A stretch of 64,000 nt of DNA from Escherichia phage A73. Position numbers and translations under genes: made by a program. A model generated the notes under the pieces. That model saw nothing but the letters and a program-made list of their open reading frames with translations, was not told the DNA's origin and ran no database searches. The stretch is from the sequence record OP778609; one strand, given 5' to 3'. Positions 17,000 through 24,324 of the stretch are shown in pieces. Position 1 is the first letter of the stretch, and each line of letters starts with the position of its first letter.

Positions 17000-17126
17000 G
17001 AGGCGATAAATGGTCCTGTAACAGCCTAAAACGGCGAAAGTATGCAATCACCTTACTTGACGATATTCTACGCACTGGCTTACACTGGGGCTTTTAAAAG
17101 GGCACAAAATAATTCGAAAAAAGTAG

Positions 17127-17154
17127 TTGACGGCAATTAATAATCTGGTAAAGT
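17127..17154 (+). promoter_or_regulatory. sigma70 promoter TTGACG-16-TAAAGT with leader hairpin
   Basis: CACGTAAG start; hairpin GGCGGCAATAGCGCCGCC (about 17167-17184). Confidence 0.6.
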
Positions 17155-17201
17155 GTACCACGTAAGGCGGCAATAGCGCCGCCATTAAAGAGATAAACGA
17201 A

Positions 17202-17588
17202 ATGAAACAAGAAATCATCAATGAAATTATTAGCGGTTACAAAGAAGCCTTTATTTTCGCTGAATCAGCAACAGATCAGCACGGGGAGTATATCGATAAC
17301 CTTGATCCTTATGACTTCTCCCAGGATGCAAACGACCGGATCGCCCAGGATGTGACAGCCTTTATCAATGCTAATGTTGCCGCTATCTCTGAAGCGATGA
17401 GCGACGGCGCTACAGCCAACCAGATCGGGAATGATTTACATTTTACCCGTAACGGTCACGGTGTAGGCTTTTGGGATCGCCCTGAAATATACACCACTAA
17501 CACGGCTAACCGTTTGAGCAATGCCGCTAAATTAATGCCTAACGTGTCAGCTTACATTGGGAAAGATAATCTGATTTATATTGAATAA
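17202..17588 (+). CDS. hypothetical protein (128 aa)
   Basis: ATG with AGAGA RBS. Confidence 0.6.
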   Translation: MKQEIINEIISGYKEAFIFAESATDQHGEYIDNLDPYDFSQDANDRIAQDVTAFINANVAAISEAMSDGATANQIGNDLHFTRNGHGVGFWDRPEIYTTNTANRLSNAAKLMPNVSAYIGKDNLIYIE

Positions 17589-17594
17589 AAAGTA

Positions 17595-17622
17595 TTGACA
17601 AGCTGAATCAACCTGATAAGAT
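17595..17622 (+). promoter_or_regulatory. sigma70 promoter TTGACA-16-TAAGAT with leader hairpin
   Basis: CACATAG start; hairpin GGGGCGACAAGCGCCCC (about 17633-17649). Confidence 0.55.
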
Positions 17623-17670
17623 GTATCACATAGGGGCGACAAGCGCCCCGCCTAACAGAGAGATAGAATC

Positions 17671-17949
17671 ATGACCATCGCCAAATTATCCACCGAAGAA
17701 ATCGAACAAGTGTTAACTACTAACCTGGAACAATGGAAACGTGAGGCAGATATACAATCAGCAAAATGGCTTAACGAGAAGTTAACACCGGATGATCTGA
17801 GTAAGATTATAGATCCTCAATTCTATGAAGATATTCACGACACGGCGTTATCCGTTGAGGATGTACTCGATAAGCATTACATTGCTACTGATTTGCAGGT
17901 TTACGGGCGTAAAAACTTTATTACTATTCACGACATTTACAATAACTAA
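17671..17949 (+). CDS. hypothetical protein, paralog B (92 aa)
   Basis: paralog of ORF 16721. Confidence 0.6.
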   Translation: MTIAKLSTEEIEQVLTTNLEQWKREADIQSAKWLNEKLTPDDLSKIIDPQFYEDIHDTALSVEDVLDKHYIATDLQVYGRKNFITIHDIYNN

Positions 17950-17984
17950 GGGCGGCAACGCCCTACAACTAAAAGGGTAATATT

Positions 17985-18179
17985 ATGACGTTAGCAACAT
18001 GCACCGGATCAAAAATTGCTTGCTTTGAGTTTATGGAAGACTATGAAACGACAGCTATCACCGATCAATATATCACCGTGATCACGCGTGACGGTATCGC
18101 CTGGCATGTTCCGGTTTATGATGGGGATACCTATGAAGTCACCGACAGCGGCGGCAATACAGCTATCTTTGTTGTCTAA
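17985..18179 (+). CDS. hypothetical protein (64 aa)
   Basis: ATG with AAAGGG RBS; preceded by hairpin GGGCGGCAACGCCC. Confidence 0.5.
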   Translation: MTLATCTGSKIACFEFMEDYETTAITDQYITVITRDGIAWHVPVYDGDTYEVTDSGGNTAIFVV

Positions 18180-18192
18180 GGGGGGAAACACT

Positions 18193-18420
18193 ATGCACAA
18201 TAACATCATTACCGATCGTGCCGCTACTATGCGCCCTGGCGATCGGGCACGTTTACAGATCGGCGCTTATCCGTTCCCTACCTATGACTTTTGCAAAGTA
18301 ACCGCTATCGAAAACAATCCCTTTGATCCTGATACCGTGATCATCTGGTACGAAGGAAAGGGAAATAAATTTGAAGACATTTTGGGGCGGGATGAGCATA
18401 TCAATATTATTCGTTACTAA
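18193..18420 (+). CDS. hypothetical protein (75 aa)
   Basis: internal ATG of track ORF 18088 preceded by GGGGGG. Confidence 0.5.
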   Translation: MHNNIITDRAATMRPGDRARLQIGAYPFPTYDFCKVTAIENNPFDPDTVIIWYEGKGNKFEDILGRDEHINIIRY

Positions 18421-18538
18421 TCGCCACCTAACAGCCTAAATAGTAGGAGGCAATGCAATCCCCTACTCAATGAGAATGGAGCGCCCTGGCTTATGCTGGG
18501 GCGTTCTACGTTACAGCAAAATAATTTTAAAAATACAC

Positions 18539-18567
18539 TTGACGTTCGCCAGGTGAGCGGGTATATT
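18539..18567 (+). promoter_or_regulatory. sigma70 promoter TTGACG-17-TATATT with leader hairpin
   Basis: CACGTAGG start; hairpin GCGGCAATAGTGCCGC (about 18580-18595). Confidence 0.6.
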
Positions 18568-18616
18568 TTATCACGTAGGGCGGCAATAGTGCCGCTCACT
18601 GACTGGAGCTATCATT

Positions 18617-19018
18617 ATGGCCTTTACAATCACCTCTTACACTGACGTTGCCAACATTGCTAAAACTTTCGGCCCTGAAGCCCTTAAGTATGCGGTATCC
18701 AATGGTAAACTAACGAAAGAGCAATGTTACCTGATTGGAAGCTGTAAACGTTGGGCGGCATCTCGTAACATCGAGATTGAAAACGTAAATGATGGTAACA
18801 TCGAGTATAGCGTTGATGCAGTATTCAAGGCCGTGTATTTGGGCGGTATCTACAATACCAATCTTAATGATGTTCGTATCGTTCGCACTGGTTTTGGGGC
18901 TTATGATGTTCCAGTCCGCGAAGCTATGGAAAAAGGTTATATTAATCCAGCTATTTTAAGTATGATCATGACTGAGGCCAAAGAACGTAACGAAGTACGG
19001 GCCATCCTGGGCCTGTAA
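18617..19018 (+). CDS. hypothetical protein (133 aa)
   Basis: ATG with GGAG RBS. Confidence 0.6.
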   Translation: MAFTITSYTDVANIAKTFGPEALKYAVSNGKLTKEQCYLIGSCKRWAASRNIEIENVNDGNIEYSVDAVFKAVYLGGIYNTNLNDVRIVRTGFGAYDVPVREAMEKGYINPAILSMIMTEAKERNEVRAILGL

Positions 19019-19039
19019 TGAAATATTAATCGAAAACTA

Positions 19040-19067
19040 TTGACACGGATCGTCAATATGCTAATAT
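19040..19067 (+). promoter_or_regulatory. sigma70 promoter TTGACA-16-TAATAT with leader hairpin
   Basis: CACGTAGG start; hairpin GCGGCAATATCGCCGC (about 19080-19095). Confidence 0.6.
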
Positions 19068-19122
19068 TTATCACGTAGGGCGGCAATATCGCCGCTCACC
19101 CCTTAAAAGAGCGAGATCTAAA

Positions 19123-19338
19123 ATGGCGTTAACAAAACAAGAAATCATCGACCGCATCAAAGAGTCAACTGGCGAGAATATTGGTAATGGTTTAATTGTT
19201 AAAGTTCTTGATTATTCAAATAATCCCCTGGCACCGGAACCAGTGGCTTACAAATTATCCTGGATATCCGTATTTAGTGGTAAGCGTACAAGATGCGTAT
19301 ACTATCCGAACACCGTGGGGCGTCAGTACTGTAAATAA
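19123..19338 (+). CDS. hypothetical protein (71 aa)
   Basis: ATG downstream of promoter and hairpin. Confidence 0.5.
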   Translation: MALTKQEIIDRIKESTGENIGNGLIVKVLDYSNNPLAPEPVAYKLSWISVFSGKRTRCVYYPNTVGRQYCK

Positions 19339-19398
19339 AGGGCACTTTAATATTAATAAGGGGCGGCAACGCCCCAGGTCAACCAAAGGGAAACAACA

Positions 19399-19605
19399 AT
19401 GAGTATTGCAATGATTAGCTCATCCGACATTAAAAAGGCTTTATCTGTATTGCGCTATCACCATAGAAGGAAGGTAATCAATGACGAGAGCTATCTAGAT
19501 TCATCGTTAGAAAGCGATACGTTGGAAGCCATTTCAAAATTATCTGATTTGCATAAACGCATGACCGAAAGCAACCGATCCGACTTCATAGGGGGCGAAA
19601 TATGA
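19399..19605 (+). CDS. hypothetical protein (68 aa)
   Basis: ATG with AAAGGG RBS; starts MSIAM like next ORF. Confidence 0.5.
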   Translation: MSIAMISSSDIKKALSVLRYHHRRKVINDESYLDSSLESDTLEAISKLSDLHKRMTESNRSDFIGGEI

Positions 19606-19862
19606 GTATTGCAATGTTAATCAATACCGTAGAAGAGGCGAAAGCATTAAAGTTACGTGTTGAACTGATTGATCAACCAGGTGGAGATCTCCTTGTACAA
19701 ATCTATCCCCCAAAGGATGATTCTGGCGCTTATGATTGGTGCTACTCTGACACGTTCGAACAAGTAGACATTAAAGCAATAACATCATTTATCAACAGGG
19801 CTATACTTGAGCAAACGATAGAACTTAACGGGATGTTAAAAACACCCTGGCACATTTACTGA
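19602..19862 (+). CDS. hypothetical protein (86 aa)
   Basis: ATGA overlap with upstream ORF. Confidence 0.5.
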   Translation: MSIAMLINTVEEAKALKLRVELIDQPGGDLLVQIYPPKDDSGAYDWCYSDTFEQVDIKAITSFINRAILEQTIELNGMLKTPWHIY

Positions 19863-19873
19863 GTTCGACAAAA

Positions 19874-19900
19874 GGGCTTGACTTGTTCAGCCCTTTTTTG
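19874..19900 (+). terminator. rho-independent terminator
   Basis: GGGCT..AGCCC stem followed by TTTTTT. Confidence 0.7.
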
Positions 19901-20026
19901 CTATTCTTATCAAACGGGCGGCACCTGGGAACAGGGGGAGGTAATCACTGGACGACTCCGCTATACAGTGATAGTAAATAGCTATCAATAATCTCCAAAA
20001 ATAAAATAAAACCTATCGAGTCTTTA

Positions 20027-20055
20027 CAATTCTTTCTGTTGACACAACAACCGCA
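20027..20055 (+). promoter_or_regulatory. sigma70 promoter TTGACA-17-TATTAT driving an ORF-free transcript
   Basis: no ORF longer than about 10 codons between 20062 and 20340. Confidence 0.5.
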
Positions 20056-20341
20056 TTACAGTATTATTTATCTCGTAGGGCAGCGAAGCAGTGATGTAAA
20101 GTAGTTACTCTATGATGTAAGTTCTGAGAAGTCGAATCCGATAAAGTATCAGAAAGTTTCTAAGTTTTCGAATCGTCCAGATGAAAAAGGCTGGCAAGTG
20201 TTGAGAAAGGGCACGTTGAGTAAGTCCTGAACAGGGGCGCTCCTAGACACCTTCTACTGAGATTGCGATCGAAGTGTTAAACTGTGAGAAACAAAAGAGC
20301 GCTAGGAAAGAAAGAAACAAGAAAAGAAGTTAAAAAGATTG

Positions 20342-20370
20342 TTGACACAAAAGTAAGTTGTATACTATTA
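20342..20370 (+). promoter_or_regulatory. sigma70 promoter TTGACA-17-TATTAT
   Basis: followed by CTCGTAGGGCA start and ORF 20416. Confidence 0.5.
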
Positions 20371-20415
20371 TATCTCTCGTAGGGCAAACATTCAAAACAT
20401 CAAAAAGGGTACAAA

Positions 20416-20691
20416 ATGTTACAACTTAACGCTAAATTAGACAAAGAAATCACTGAATTTTGGGATATGGTAGTAGCTACTGATGTGGACGGTGTAGCAA
20501 GTCCTTACCTCAATAACATCGAGTATCACAATGTTGCCGCTATCAATGCAGAACACAAAGAGAAAGGCGGTGCTGATAAATTTGCTAAAAGCAATGGCTT
20601 CACTGATGCTAATCACATGATGCAATCAGTATTGTGGCAAGCTCAAGAAGATTTCGAAGAAAAAACTCTTGAATTTGCCAGACGCTCATAA
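20416..20691 (+). CDS. hypothetical protein (91 aa)
   Basis: ATG with AAAGGG RBS. Confidence 0.55.
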   Translation: MLQLNAKLDKEITEFWDMVVATDVDGVASPYLNNIEYHNVAAINAEHKEKGGADKFAKSNGFTDANHMMQSVLWQAQEDFEEKTLEFARRS

Positions 20692-20746
20692 TAGAATAAT
20701 CAAACGGGCCGAAAGGCCCACTAACTGACCTAACAGGATTAACATC

Positions 20747-21016
20747 ATGAATCGCATCGACCAGCTTAAAGTAGTTCAGCATATGGCTTACCGTATCCTT
20801 GAAGTTCAGAAAGGGAGCAAAAAAGAAGTATGTGAGAAGGCTTATAAGGTATTCAGCCACAAAGCTGATGATTGGAAGTTGCAGAAAGTCAAAAAGGCCG
20901 ATATCCTGGGCTACCTTGAGGATGAGATCCGCCTTGCGGAGCAAAAACAGATTCGTCGTGATGAGGCAGAACATAACCAGGCCTGGCAGGAGTGGTTTAA
21001 AGGGTATACTAAGTAA
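20747..21016 (+). CDS. hypothetical protein (89 aa)
   Basis: ATG with AGGAT RBS; charged coiled-coil-like. Confidence 0.5.
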   Translation: MNRIDQLKVVQHMAYRILEVQKGSKKEVCEKAYKVFSHKADDWKLQKVKKADILGYLEDEIRLAEQKQIRRDEAEHNQAWQEWFKGYTK

Positions 21017-21025
21017 TATCGAAAA

Positions 21026-21055
21026 CGGGGGGTTATATGCCCCCTTTGTAAATAT
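21026..21055 (+). terminator. hairpin GGGGGG-loop-CCCCC plus T-rich run
   Basis: inverted repeat then TTTGTAAATATT. Confidence 0.45.
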
Positions 21056-21079
21056 TCCATTAATTTACAATTCCCTCTA

Positions 21080-21109
21080 TTGACAAGAAAGTCAATTTTG
21101 CAGTATAGT
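21080..21109 (+). promoter_or_regulatory. sigma70 promoter TTGACA-18-TATAGT
   Basis: hexamers upstream of ORF 21150. Confidence 0.5.
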
Positions 21110-21149
21110 TATATCTCTAGCAGCAAACAACAAAACAAAGGACAACGAC

Positions 21150-21569
21150 ATGAACATCAAATCAACTAATCCGGCTTACTCTTTCGATAACGCTTTTTGT
21201 CACGGTAGTGCCGCCAAAGGTTTTGAAATTGATGGTAAACTGGTTATCGTCAATGTTGATGGGGAAGAGGTTGCAGTTTATCCAGTGGCAGACGTTAAAA
21301 GCCGTTTACAATGCCGCATGGATGTTAACGAATACCGCCTTGATCCGGTTCGTGTCGTTGCCCTGGTACTGGAAGAAGAAATTAAAGCAATGCAGCACAG
21401 CAACAAATTTATCGGCGATGCACAGGACAACATGAAAGTAAGCCGCCACAAAGTTAATGAAGCACTGAAAGATTTTGGCTTTAAAGATCTAGTTATCAAA
21501 CGTGATGAAAAATTTCGCTTTCGTAATGATCTGGCAAATCGCTACTATGAAATCTATGAAGCACTTTAA
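21150..21569 (+). CDS. hypothetical protein (139 aa)
   Basis: ATG with AAAGGA RBS. Confidence 0.6.
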   Translation: MNIKSTNPAYSFDNAFCHGSAAKGFEIDGKLVIVNVDGEEVAVYPVADVKSRLQCRMDVNEYRLDPVRVVALVLEEEIKAMQHSNKFIGDAQDNMKVSRHKVNEALKDFGFKDLVIKRDEKFRFRNDLANRYYEIYEAL

Positions 21570-21585
21570 GAGGTAAGACAACAAG

Positions 21586-21608
21586 GGGCCGCAATAGCGG
21601 CCTTTTCT
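21586..21608 (+). terminator. rho-independent terminator (GGCCGC-AATA-GCGGCC + TTTTCT)
   Basis: same GCAATAG-loop hairpin class as leader hairpins, here with a U tract; T tract abuts next -35. Confidence 0.55.
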
Positions 21609-21609
21609 A

Positions 21610-21638
21610 TTGACACCTGCTAATCATTCCTTTAATAT
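21610..21638 (+). promoter_or_regulatory. sigma70 promoter TTGACA-17-TAATAT
   Basis: followed by CTTGTAGGGCA start. Confidence 0.55.
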
Positions 21639-21689
21639 GTACCTTGTAGGGCAAGCAATAACGCAAGCCCATAAATAGGACAAACTATC

Positions 21690-21887
21690 ATGACCATCGC
21701 TAATGAACTGATCGCTGTATTGAATGAAGCCAAATCTAATCAGATCGATGTACAGATCAAAGAATTGCCCAATGGCCTGATCGGTTGCACTTGCACCTGC
21801 TTCGGAAGTGACTACACAGAGGTAAGCTCTCTAGAATCTCTCATTCGTCACTTGAAATCAATAGTTGAAGATTGGAGAATCATCTAA
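21690..21887 (+). CDS. hypothetical protein (65 aa)
   Basis: ATG with AGGAC RBS; last gene of + block; followed by hairpin GGGGCCGCAATAGTGGCCC. Confidence 0.5.
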   Translation: MTIANELIAVLNEAKSNQIDVQIKELPNGLIGCTCTCFGSDYTEVSSLESLIRHLKSIVEDWRII

Positions 21888-22503
21888 TCAACCAGGGGCC
21901 GCAATAGTGGCCCTTGTCATATCCATCGGCGTGACTCTCCCAACTCTATTAATCCCTTCCCCATTTGGATCATCATAACTTACCTCATCTAATCATTAAT
22001 CTAATCCCCTTTGGAATCTCTCCCCCACAAATCTAAACTAATCTGATAGCTTACCATAACATAATCCACAAAGAAAGAACTATTTTGCCCACAATGAAAG
22101 GCAGTTTTAAAGAGATACCATTGCCAGAGTATGGAGGTGGCGCGACCGTAGGGAGCGACACTATAAAACGAGTATACCCCTCCTACCGCTATGCGGTCAT
22201 CGGTGATAACCGATATCGTTACACGCTATCTGTTCTCTTCGTTTCCTCGTTTTATAGTGTCTATATGTAGTAATCTTTTATTCTTTGTCAATACATTATC
22301 GAAGATAATATTGAATTATTTAATGCTTTGTTATTCATATAAAGTGAATAGCTAGTCAATAGGAAGGCCGTTAGTGTGACCACACAAAGAGGCTATGCAC
22401 CACAAAGAGAGGCCGTACTTGCCCACAAAAGGAGCAAACAAGCAAGGCGGTACGCCAGTTTGCTAATGAGCGTAGCTCTTTTGCTAGACAAAACTCTCTT
22501 CTC

Positions 22504-22661
22504 TCTTCTTTCCCAAAATAAATTTTTTCTTGCTTTTATTGCCAGAGTATGGCGGGGGGAATGTTGAAAAAATAGATCTTGACTGGTCAACATACGATAC
22601 ATCCTATCTTCTTTCCCAAAATAAATTTTTTCTTGCTTTTATTGCCAGAGTATGGCGGGGG
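22504..22661. repeat. two perfect 55-bp direct repeats spaced 103 bp apart
   Basis: TCTTCTTTCCCAAAATAAATTTTTTCTTGCTTTTATTGCCAGAGTATGGCGGGGG at 22504-22558 and 22607-22661; related partial copy TTGCCAGAGTATGGAGGTGG near 22120. Confidence 0.85.
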
Positions 22662-23022
22662 CGCTCAGGCTATTGATGGCCCTGATGGAGTCGCTCCTGT
22701 ACAGTTGGAATAGTTCACAGTTGGATAGTAACAAGTTGGTATTATTCTTCCCACAAGTTGGAGCAGGCCAGAACTGGCGGGGCTTAGAGTCGCCTCACTT
22801 GTTGGACTGGAAGGAGGGCGCTTGCGGTGCGTATAAGTTGTATTATGTTAAATGCAGATCGAAATCGGTATTCTAAACCAGATTCAGAAGTCAATAGAAA
22901 TCTTTAACTTTATTGTTGGGGCAGCACAACATTTTTCTTGACAAGTCGAATCAAAGATGTATTGTGGATTGAAAATAAATGAAGATAATGCTTGACTTCT
23001 TGGATATTTTGAAAACATCGGA

Positions 23023-23039
23023 CCCCCTCCCCCTCCCCC
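23023..23039. repeat. poly-C tract CCCCCTCCCCCTCCCCC
   Basis: 17-nt C-rich run in an otherwise AT-rich non-coding region. Confidence 0.8.
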
Positions 23040-23346
23040 ACGGTCGCCGTGCCTGGCAGCAGTGCCAACGCACTAGACAAAAAAGATGCTTTCTTGCTGA
23101 CGAAGAACAAGGTCAACAGACAACAGACAAGGCTGGTTAGACTGGTTAGCCTCTTCAGGCCAGTACCCTTTGGATATATTTGGGCAGGTACAGAAAAGGA
23201 CCCACCCCGTCATTAGTGACTCAAAATTTTGGCGGGAGGGTAAAATAACTAAAAAGTGGTCGTTTAAAATTCAGGCTGGAGGTCCACTCAGAGTAGACGT
23301 ATACTGGAAATTATAAACTACAAGACGAGTGGATGTATGGACGTGA

Positions 23347-23504
23347 CTCCGTGGCATGAATGCCACTCTGTGGACAATAGGCATTACTCTGTGGCAAGAG
23401 AGGAGCCTCTGTGGACAATCGGAGTGCCTCGATAGGCAGAATGGACTTGACTCTGTGGGCAAAGTAGTGTGTCTCAGTAGGCCAACAGTGGTTACTCTTT
23501 AGGC
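23347..23504. repeat. array of 8 degenerate CTCYGTGGRCAA repeats at about 21-bp periodicity
   Basis: copies start near 23347, 23366, 23387, 23407, 23428, 23451, 23473, 23496; core TGTGGACAA is 8/9 match to complement of DnaA box (TGTGNATAA). Confidence 0.7.
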
Positions 23505-23515
23505 AAACTACCTAA

Positions 23516-23684
23516 TTTTGGGATGAACTGATATTTGTGGGAATCATTGTACGATATTTGGGCATTATTGTAGGTGGAGTACAACAGTTTGGAAGGACGA
23601 TATAGTTTGGTGGGCACAACATTTTGGGATGAGCAGATGAGTTTGGTTGCAATCCAGATGCAAAAAGCACCCACTTTTGGGGTG
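23516..23684. repeat. array of about 9 degenerate TTTGGGR-type repeats at about 20-bp spacing
   Basis: TTTTGGGA, TTTGTGGGA, TTTGGGCA, TTGTAGGTGG, TTTGGAAGG, TTTGGTGGG, TTTTGGGAT, TTTGGTTGC, TTTTGGGGTG; contiguous with the previous array. Confidence 0.6.
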
Positions 23685-23701
23685 CTCTCTGTAGTTCAGG
23701 A

Positions 23702-24100
23702 TCATACAGCCAGTCGTCTGAGGGCATACGTTGGATTGTCAATGTCAAATAGATTGACAAGCTTAACAATTCTGTAGCTCTGGGCTTTTACTGACTTGTA
23801 TTGAGATTTATCTTTATCTTCTTGAAGGATGATAGATTCAATTCCGTTATCATAGGCGTACTCAAGGTAGCTCTGAGTAAACCCAAGGGCATCTGCATCC
23901 TTCTTGGCTATTTGGTAGATAAATTGTTGCTCTGTGCCGTCATAAATTACCTTCTTGTCTTTCGGTTCTATATAGATTCTACGTGCAGAGCCAGAACCAA
24001 TCTTCTGTTCTTGTTCTTTACGTTTTTCGGCCTCTTCTGCCAAAGATTTCCGTGTACCATTCCAACGATGCGCGATTTTATTTACCATTCCGGCCTCCAA
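23702..24100 (-). CDS. hypothetical protein (132 aa)
   Basis: first gene of minus block; charged; start codon not verified. Confidence 0.5.
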   Translation of the reverse strand: MEAGMVNKIAHRWNGTRKSLAEEAEKRKEQEQKIGSGSARRIYIEPKDKKVIYDGTEQQFIYQIAKKDADALGFTQSYLEYAYDNGIESIILQEDKDKSQYKSVKAQSYRIVKLVNLFDIDNPTYALRRLAV

Positions 24101-24324
24101 GTGATATCAACTTTAATTTCTACCTGTGCCAACACGAAAGGACGTTCATCACCACTGAAGTTATGTCGCCAATCCGTCTCCCGAATGTCCAGACAGTCTT
24201 TACTCTTAACATCGTAGAACGTAAACGTCCCCGACTTCCTGAACACTTCGTCATTAGGGCCGTCCACATGACCGAAGTAGGCCCCTCTTTTAATTTCCTG
24301 AAAGTTATAGTGTGCCATGTTCAT
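24082..24324 (-). CDS. hypothetical protein (80 aa)
   Basis: ORF in contiguous minus-strand operon. Confidence 0.5.
   Translation of the reverse strand: MNMAHYNFQEIKRGAYFGHVDGPNDEVFRKSGTFTFYDVKSKDCLDIRETDWRHNFSGDERPFVLAQVEIKVDITWRPEW

Follow-up and report, generated by a model that had tools for sequence, protein, structure and literature searches.

What is made from a strong phage promoter that no evident gene follows? The question arises at positions 20027-20341 of a 64,000-nucleotide (nt) stretch of Escherichia phage A73 (sequence record OP778609; the whole stretch is called the window here), which comes from a Vequintavirinae-like Escherichia coli phage. An earlier note, made from the letters alone, had proposed for this segment a promoter-driven transcript without open reading frames (ORFs), either a small RNA or a long leader. 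We found that ~20075-20256 is very probably a folded non-coding RNA of ~185 nt, composed of two modules (A and B), a hairpin (P1) and a probable pseudoknot that encloses a boxB-shaped hairpin. The idea of a promoter-driven, non-coding and structured transcript is borne out by covariation, by an excess of G.U pairs on the + strand, by conservation and by recurrence behind early promoters in at least six phage groups. Its extent had been overstated: of a segment of ~280 nt, the conserved RNA takes up 20075-20256, perhaps reaching 20295, and the remainder includes a variable spacer. The RNA represents a phage early-leader structured RNA family that is not described in any source we searched and that contains a known building block, the loop-E signature.

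A very probable folded RNA behind an early promoter

The promoter that precedes the RNA is real and strong, with TTGACA and TATTAT elements separated by 17 nt, but its position had been given wrongly as 20027-20055; it lies 12 nt further to the right, at 20039-20067, with an inferred start site at ~20074-20075. The next promoter begins exactly where it had been placed, at 20342. It is a duplicate of the first and drives a gene (20416-20691) for a protein of 91 amino acids (aa) that belongs to phrog_7287. Upstream, the terminator of the preceding operon ends at 19899, so that a new transcription unit begins at the RNA locus. An automated scan missed this terminator because its loop is longer than 8 nt, yet it is kept in relatives and has an equivalent in phage rV5. 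The locus can be divided as follows, the parts of the RNA being those of the proposed fold.

19870-19899, + strand: intrinsic terminator of the upstream operon, read from the sequence; stem AAAAGGGCU/AGCCCUUUU, 10-nt loop, U6 tract
20039-20067, + strand: first sigma-70-type promoter; TTGACA (20039-20044), 17-nt spacer, TATTAT (20062-20067), 11 of 12 positions matching
20075-20113, + strand: module A; outer stem GUAGGG.AGC / GUU.CUCUAU, invariant GAA (20085-20087), invariant AAAGUA (20098-20103)
20088-20097, + strand: inner hairpin of module A; GCA-GUGA-UGU, 3 base pairs (bp) with a GNRA-type loop
20114-20121, + strand: linker between the modules; GAUGUAAG, the window version of a conserved GUAGUAAG
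20122-20154, + strand: module B; outer stem UUCUGA/UCAGAA, invariant GAA (20128-20130), invariant AAAGUA (20143-20148)
20131-20142, + strand: inner hairpin of module B; GUCG-AAUC-CGAU, 4 bp, containing the first TCGAATC
20155-20174, + strand: joining region; AGUUUCUAAGUUUUCGAAUC, with the second TCGAATC, where the block common to Rtp-like and Seurat-like phages (core, 20168-20255) starts
20175-20195, + strand: hairpin P1; G.CCAG AUGAAAAAGG CUGG C, the 10-nt loop nearly invariant
20198-20256, + strand: probable H-type pseudoknot; helix S1 is GUG (20198-20200) with CAC (20212-20214)
20203-20210 and 20250-20256, + strand: pseudoknot helix S2; GAG.AAGG with CCUUCUA
20218-20242, + strand: long-form insert P3 + P4, between S1 and S2; P3 is GAGU/GCUC
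20224-20228 and 20234-20238, + strand: hairpin P4; 5-bp stem GUCCU/GGGGC, pentaloop GAACA (20229-20233)
20257-20295, + strand: 3′ extension, moderately conserved
20296-20341, + strand: A/G-rich spacer before the second promoter (the last ~45 nt), variable and with indels among relatives
20342-20371, + strand: second promoter; TTGACA, 18-nt spacer, TATTAT, 11 of 12 positions matching

Both TCGAATC elements that had been remarked on are present, in different parts of the RNA: the first (20132-20138) forms stem and loop of the module B hairpin and the second (20168-20174) opens the conserved core. The short inverted repeats proved to be real helices with covariation support. Across lineages the inner hairpin of module A reads GCA-GUGA-UGY, or GUG-GCGA-CAC in K1-ULIP33; the outer stem of this module is variable in sequence, its closing strand following AAGUA. 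The loop of module B is AAUC, with GAAU instead in Seuratvirus. In P4 the pentaloop is GAA[N]A, with C, A or U at the fourth position (GAAAA and GAAUA in relatives).

Comparative support for the fold

Pairing in the 5′ domain was tested on a MAFFT alignment of 15 lineages against column shuffles and slid partners. The proposed structure was 88.0% paired, compared with 59.8 ± 2.0% in the shuffles, and pairing fell to 29-40% when partners were slid by 1-3 columns. Twenty of the 22 pairs change on both sides. In module B, pairing reaches 95.6% in the outer helix and 98.3% in the inner one, and 10/10 pairs change on both sides. RNAalifold, which was given no proposed structure, recovered the same inner helices, with compensatory changes in 15 of 16 pairs. 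GAA and AAGUA are invariant in both modules, and 20 positions of the 5′ domain are invariant at unpaired or non-Watson-Crick places. Together with invariant single-stranded stretches in the core, these positions suggest specific recognition.

The core was tested on an alignment of 14 sequences. P1 is 100% paired and two of its four pairs covary (CCAG/CUGG, CCGG/CCGG and CUAG/CUAG). S1 is also 100% paired, with covariation in all three pairs and six pair combinations across lineages, which brings the two helices together to five covarying pairs out of seven. P3 and P4 are 90% paired with few compensatory changes (C-G to U-A; U.G to C-G). The 7-bp complement of S2 is kept everywhere but is invariant, with zero covariation, so that the pseudoknot topology is what the complementarity suggests: S1 and S2 probably form an H-type pseudoknot. 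G.U outnumbered A.C on the + strand by 27:7 and 14:3, which indicates that the structure belongs to the + strand transcript and not to the DNA or the opposite strand.

By BLAST, the closest records to the window over 19870-20420 are A5-4, A7_1, vB_EcoM-LTH01 and UPEC06, at 90-96% identity. Among these four close relatives, variable columns make up 2.2% of 20075-20256, 9.8% of the 3′ extension and 36% of the spacer; in the flanks as a whole (terminator, upstream segment, promoter spacer, tail and next promoter) they make up 13-36%, and the RNA is conserved about tenfold better than these flanks. The few changes inside the RNA convert G.U to G-C or fall at position 4 of the pentaloop. A covariance model of the 5′ domain (R1) found one copy in the window, at 88 bits, the next match scoring 10.7 bits.

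No reading frame is conserved across the RNA. The statement that no ORF exceeds 10 codons was not literally true: there are a GTG ORF of 32 aa (20284-20382, + strand), a TTG ORF of 21 aa whose start codon falls within the promoter, and four ORFs of 25-36 aa on the minus strand, none of them conserved. The sole ATG ORF of the transcript has 7 codons (20181-20204). A 1-nt indel within the invariant core of SLUR75 and WildeMaa disrupts all reading frames, and the short-form relatives described below have no common ORF. A protein-coding gene was therefore rejected. Deposited records do place 'hypothetical protein' coding sequences (CDSs) over the RNA on the minus strand (A54_101 in A5-4, two in UPEC06 and two in PH1062), and these are mutually inconsistent. 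Since the + strand is purine-rich, the minus strand has long stop-free stretches that account for such inconsistent CDSs, which are probably artefacts of a pyrimidine-rich strand.

The RNA recurs in unrelated phages

The 88-nt core (20168-20255) is 85-92% identical, by BLAST, to intergenic DNA of unrelated E. coli phages whose flanks are unrelated to those of the window. The carriers are Rtp and ZL19 (Braunvirinae) and PH1062 and BUCT-XGG-1 (Nouzillyvirus) in the Drexlerviridae, and SA80RD, SLUR75 and WildeMaa in Seuratvirus. Within genera the distribution is sporadic, comprising three Seuratvirus records and four Drexlerviridae phages in five records. The 5′ part (20084-20160) matches, more weakly, Salmonella phages of the 7-11 group and Erwinia phage Era103, and a search seeded with Era103 reached Autographiviridae of Klebsiella, Ralstonia, Pseudomonas and Pantoea as well as Kuravirus of E. 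coli. Versions of the module were found in Vequintavirinae, Drexlerviridae, Seuratvirus, Grimontviridae, Kuravirus and Autographiviridae, the recorded hosts of the carriers being E. coli, Salmonella, Klebsiella, Erwinia, Pseudomonas and Ralstonia.

These versions differ in composition. The window, Rtp-like and Seurat-like versions are of a long form with the P3/P4 insert, and those of Autographiviridae are of a short form that lacks it. The 7-11-like phages have modules A and B alone, Rtp-like phages a single module with the core, and Kuravirus modules A and B with a different 3′ domain. In the 7-11-like phages, the A/B modules are followed by a stretch of more than 1 kilobase (kb), partly GC-rich and without annotation (locus L016, Salmonella phage SE131, 1149-2245), which may hold further non-coding RNA.

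In nearly all members, module A is preceded at a constant distance by a sigma-70-like promoter site. An exception is the Rtp group, where no consensus sigma-70 promoter was found and several TGCAATA / ATTGCAAT repeats precede the RNA (L005, 100-200; L004, 2330-2400); these could be operator-like sites or an unusual promoter. In each lineage examined, the first helix begins within a few nt of the inferred start site. The element is co-oriented with early genes in all cases and left unannotated, and the family is confined to regions transcribed by host polymerase. No terminator was found in any member, including Rtp and WildeMaa, and in Seuratvirus and Autographiviridae no promoter was found between the RNA and the first gene. 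These two observations suggest that, as a general rule, the RNA is probably the 5′ leader of an early mRNA made by host polymerase.

Searches of larger collections added few members. Scans of IMG/VR with patterns of the core returned only Rtp itself and one chance match in a coding sequence. A loose module A pattern gave 55 IMG/VR loci, nearly all of them one coding region of gut-phage contigs scoring no more than the seeded 19-mer; L035, L084, L023 and four K1-ULIP33-like contigs were gained with a stricter pattern and a pattern of module B. In the JGI metagenomes, a 21-nt core pattern matched five loci, all by chance in unrelated GC-rich or AT-rich sequence, and an exact-pattern scan of GTDB genomes gave 16 matches, all bare 19-mers in unrelated bacteria. 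A host origin or host mimicry was rejected as well, the core and the 5′ domain having no match in 5,426 complete E. coli genomes or in PLSDB plasmids.

The RNA behaves as an exchangeable cassette

The two promoters that bracket the RNA are duplicates 303-304 nt apart. Their -35 elements are 100% identical (20037-20047 and 20340-20350), and the -10 elements with the initial transcribed sequence are 85% identical (20057-20082 and 20361-20386), ending in TCGTAGGGCA. To judge from these repeats, the duplication appears to be what an inserted cassette, or recombination mediated by the promoters, left behind. Phage rV5 has the homologous downstream gene (49% identity) behind one promoter (P168) and has no RNA, and it shares the terminator and a GC-rich upstream segment with the window. 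The single promoter of rV5, set against the duplication in the window, argues that the window lineage gained a promoter-plus-RNA unit; very probably the RNA came in ahead of a promoter and gene that were already there, accompanied by a copy of that promoter. The GC-rich segment itself (19914-19990, CGGGCGGCACCUGGGAACAGGGGGAGGUAAUCAC...; 1137-1185 in rV5, L106) contains a CCUG-GGAA-CAGG hairpin. Short repeats that seemed to link 19948-19984 to the RNA were judged to be at chance level and rejected.

Seuratvirus gives a similar picture. Only 3 of the 35 records that match the flanks of WildeMaa carry the RNA, and in KurtStettler and CAjan it is replaced by protein genes (phrog_28005 and others) behind the same promoter. 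The window RNA is a mosaic in that, the four close relatives aside, its A/B modules are nearest to relatives of Salmonella phage 7-11 (~76%) and its core to Seuratvirus (~91%). The comparisons thus portray the RNA as behaving like an exchangeable, horizontally moved and optional cassette. Absence from relatives, or coding there, had been named beforehand as a sign against the candidate. The RNA is indeed absent from rV5 and has given way to a protein gene in some Seuratviruses; where it occurs, however, it never encodes a protein and its conservation far exceeds that of the flanking sequence, and this pattern of presence and absence with high conservation points to an optional cassette rather than to noise.

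HNH or homing endonuclease genes lie near the RNA in three lineages: immediately upstream in Era103 (L073, 822-1280), and 0.8-1 kb downstream in WildeMaa (L008, 3435-3908) and SA80RD (L003, 4080-4562). This may be coincidence or a route of cassette mobility.

Comparison with known RNAs

At the gathering threshold, Rfam 15 had no match in the whole window. With the threshold relaxed to E <= 10, its 4227 families gave only chance matches of 16-21 bits to small nucleolar RNA (snoRNA) and CRISPR-DR models within 19800-20500, and nothing relevant was found at the loci of 11 relatives. ARAGORN found no genes for tRNA or transfer-messenger RNA (tmRNA) in the window. No description of the RNA was found in the literature searched, the coverage of which was incomplete, so that this is absence of evidence only.

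The closest likeness is to the put RNA of phage HK022. Put is described as a non-coding RNA made by host RNA polymerase directly after an early promoter, with two adjacent irregular stem-loops of ~35-40 nt each and no terminator of its own, upstream of early genes (PMC9378689). Modules A and B likewise begin ~1 nt after the inferred start site in the window, a likeness of layout only. Put is ~70 nt long with a minor-groove triplex; the window RNA, at ~185 nt, has a hairpin and a probable pseudoknot in addition. Put is not known outside lambdoid temperate phages, where it sits upstream of terminators that it must overcome, whereas the carriers of the present family are virulent phages from at least six groups, and no such terminators are evident at the window RNA. 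What defines put is that it binds the beta′ zinc-binding domain of RNA polymerase and suppresses termination and pausing in cis.

P4 resembles boxB of lambda nut, a site that, like the rrn leader, serves antitermination by Nus factors. It has a 5-bp stem and a GNRA-like pentaloop, a shape that we take to be boxB-like, and its pairing is kept by stem changes in relatives; 12 of 15 positions match what we take to be lambda nutR boxB (GCCCUGAAAAAGGGC). The boxB-like hairpin is absent from the short-form relatives. BoxA (GCUCUUUAACAA), the other nut element, was found in perfect or near-perfect form 15-130 nt downstream of the RNA in all seven Autographiviridae-type members, and directly follows modules A and B in the IMG/VR contig L035. 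It is absent in the window, in the Rtp, Seurat and 7-11 groups and in Kuravirus, and boxA matches across the window are at chance level (11, compared with 7.7 ± 2.8). In the early regions of Autographiviridae, one intergenic region after another contains a perfect or near-perfect boxA (GCTCTTTAACAA, mostly with TCTGG or TATGG after it), which looks like a repeated intergenic unit (L077, 789 and 1160; L079, 903 and 1143; L035, 5235, 4956 and 4248; SP6, L103, ~656 and 926; T7, L102, 813).

In both modules and all 15 lineages, 5′-GAA-3′ is opposed to 5′-AGUA-3′ between covarying helices. We take these opposed strands to be the sequence signature of the bulged-G motif of loop E and the sarcin-ricin loop, the likeness being one of sequence signature only; the three-dimensional marks of the motif are an S-turn backbone, a bulged-G base triple and a sheared A.G pair. 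Relative to the capping hairpin, the motif is oriented opposite to that of the ribosomal sarcin-ricin loop, which argues against the modules being a simple mimic of that loop.

Two further groups of RNAs invite comparison. Like the early leaders of T7-type phages, the RNA is an untranslated 5′ segment of early transcripts made by host polymerase in virulent phages, and in Autographiviridae relatives it fills the promoter-to-boxA interval that T7 also has. The T7 and SP6 leaders were nevertheless rejected as members of the family, since neither module is present and covariance model R1 finds nothing there. No RNase III site was identified in the window RNA. ROOL, GOLLD and HEARO-type motifs are likewise conserved, multi-helix, phage-carried RNAs that emerged from comparative analysis and have no known function; the window RNA differs in being smaller, in being tied to early promoters and in having no Rfam match.

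How the RNA might act

HK022 put RNA, lambda nut and the rrn leader act on polymerase in one general way, and an internal loop of the loop-E/S-turn type such as GAA//AAGUA is a docking motif for protein or RNA. By analogy, host RNA polymerase would start at the strong promoter and make the folded domain first. The RNA would fold as it emerges from polymerase and act in cis, co-transcriptionally, by binding the host elongation complex or an elongation or termination factor, and early transcription would be kept processive, resisting Rho or pausing, into the downstream early genes. Two irregular hairpins after an early promoter, the boxB-shaped P4 and the boxA neighbourhood favour such an effect on the elongation complex. 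The data show the promoter, the fold and its strand, the absence of coding, the distribution and the cassette behaviour; the attachment of the RNA to downstream mRNA, its binding of a protein and its action are what we infer. A cis-acting leader that works on the host transcription complex, like put and nut, is a tentative proposal that we would expect to fail more often than to hold. Taken as a whole, the identity of the RNA together with this mechanism is the best explanation we can offer, at somewhat less than even confidence.

Several observations weigh against it. The minimum free energy (MFE) of the whole 268-nt stretch is not better than that of shuffles (z = +0.75, and +0.97 for the other strand), although the MFE fold of the single sequence nonetheless contains modules A and B; judged by MFE alone, the RNA would have been discarded. 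No boxA (CGCUCUUA / GCUCUUUAACAA) was found near the window RNA on the + strand with up to 2 mismatches, and no N-like arginine-rich motif in 21 downstream early ORFs of 10 phages including the window, although a distant gene might encode one; the neighbouring proteins showed no Pfam or PHROG function. T7 and SP6 have boxA without the modules, which suggests that boxA is general to those early regions rather than a specific partner of the RNA. A scan found no canonical + strand intrinsic terminator within 1.5 kb downstream, so that nothing obvious needs antitermination, and a terminator scan of the window found none on this strand between 20068 and 22000. The next gene has its own strong promoter. 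Finally, sister phages lack the RNA or have a protein gene in its slot, a pattern that resembles an accessory gene more than a control element essential to an operon.

That same pattern would suit an RNA that acts in trans. The RNA could be an accessory 'RNA moron', its domain released by processing in the A/G-rich spacer. In the first minutes of infection it could then titrate a host protein, whether a nuclease, a defence effector or some global RNA-binding protein, by working as a decoy or sponge, as the RNA counterpart of small early anti-host proteins. We regard this explanation as doubtful, but as nearly as likely as the cis-acting leader. Besides its sporadic distribution within genera, a core kept at 85-92% identity across unrelated families amid unrelated flanks would be expected of such a factor, as would the finding that KurtStettler and CAjan have protein-coding cassettes at this place, after the same promoter. 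In the window the unit is a stand-alone promoter and RNA, followed by another promoter, and its 5′ end is paired from about the first nucleotide and its 3′ spacer variable, as expected of a stable processed RNA. Yet no lineage has a terminator or a defined 3′ end, and the RNA always reads into early genes in the same orientation. It also has no similarity to host RNAs or E. coli DNA and matches no known type of decoy (ToxI, tRNA or CRISPR repeats). The candidate of a terminator-bounded phage small RNA was rejected for a related reason, a promoter being present and no + strand intrinsic terminator that would define a short transcript. In its strongest version, a stand-alone trans-acting RNA that is exchanged by at least six phage families, is the first molecule made on infection and neutralises a host protein, this explanation appears unlikely.

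Less probable still, the RNA may be a passive stabiliser or processing element at the 5′ end, which would shield early mRNA from 5′-end-dependent decay by RNase E and RppH or direct its processing without a specific partner. Its place at the extreme 5′ end of the transcript, with the first helix so close to the start site in each lineage examined, would fit this role, and the early leaders of T7-type phages are known as processed RNAs. A simple 5′ hairpin would suffice for it, however. Here 20 positions in the 5′ domain do not vary although they are unpaired or at non-Watson-Crick places, and the core keeps long single-stranded stretches unchanged from family to family; generic stability, moreover, hardly explains the horizontal spread of an exact core sequence.

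A riboswitch-like leader that senses a ligand and tunes early genes to the state of the host is quite improbable. Its position in a 5′ untranslated region, a multi-helix fold with a pseudoknot and invariant unpaired nucleotides would all be at home in a riboswitch, but none of the 4227 Rfam families matched even at E <= 10 and there is no visible expression platform, neither a terminator/antiterminator pair nor a sequestered Shine-Dalgarno sequence. Moreover, the next gene in the window has its own promoter, and the downstream genes are unrelated between lineages.

Finally, the minus-strand CDSs annotated in A5-4, UPEC06 and PH1062 and the location of the element near the genome end in Rtp-like and 7-11-like records could hint at something other than RNA (protein-binding sites, an origin, a packaging signal, a recombination hotspot or a small protein gene), but this is very improbable indeed, given that compensatory changes keep the hairpins and not the sequence, that G.U pairs are tolerated on the + strand only, that the annotated CDSs disagree and their frames are broken by the 1-nt indel, and that the element stands in one orientation, nearly always behind a promoter.

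Other features of the window

Promoter-like sites are enriched within 17000-23500 (30, compared with 15.6 ± 4.3 in shuffles). Further downstream, ~21890-24300 is ORF-poor over ~2.4 kb and contains a 58-nt direct repeat (22501 and 22604, 98% identical) and three copies resembling ATTGCCAGAGTATGGCGGGGG (22120, 22538 and 22641); no tRNA or Rfam match was found there. GC-rich tetraloop hairpins such as GGGCCGAAAGGCCC occur at 17949-17964, 19360-19375, 20703-20722, 21027-21044 and 21587-21602, the last three immediately after the stop codons that end early genes of the + strand. On this strand they lack a U tract, and the only terminators flagged there are minus-strand ones. These hairpins may be stabilisers of mRNA 3′ ends or barriers against antisense transcription.

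Implications

The usual view of early regions in virulent phages is one of rows of small uncharacterised proteins; here an RNA whose fold is well supported takes one of the slots. The family can be annotated with the covariance model from this analysis, and deposited annotations with spurious minus-strand CDSs over the RNA are corrected. The BASEL collection holds a natural pair of phages with and without the RNA, WildeMaa (Bas23) and KurtStettler (Bas22). Should the RNA modify the transcription complex of the host, control of host polymerase by RNA alone, so far a matter of one lambdoid phage (HK022 with its put RNA), would reach many virulent phages. Should it instead be a decoy that works in trans, it would represent an anti-host factor of a new kind, a protein-free means of counter-defence or host takeover, and a new functional class of phage RNA.

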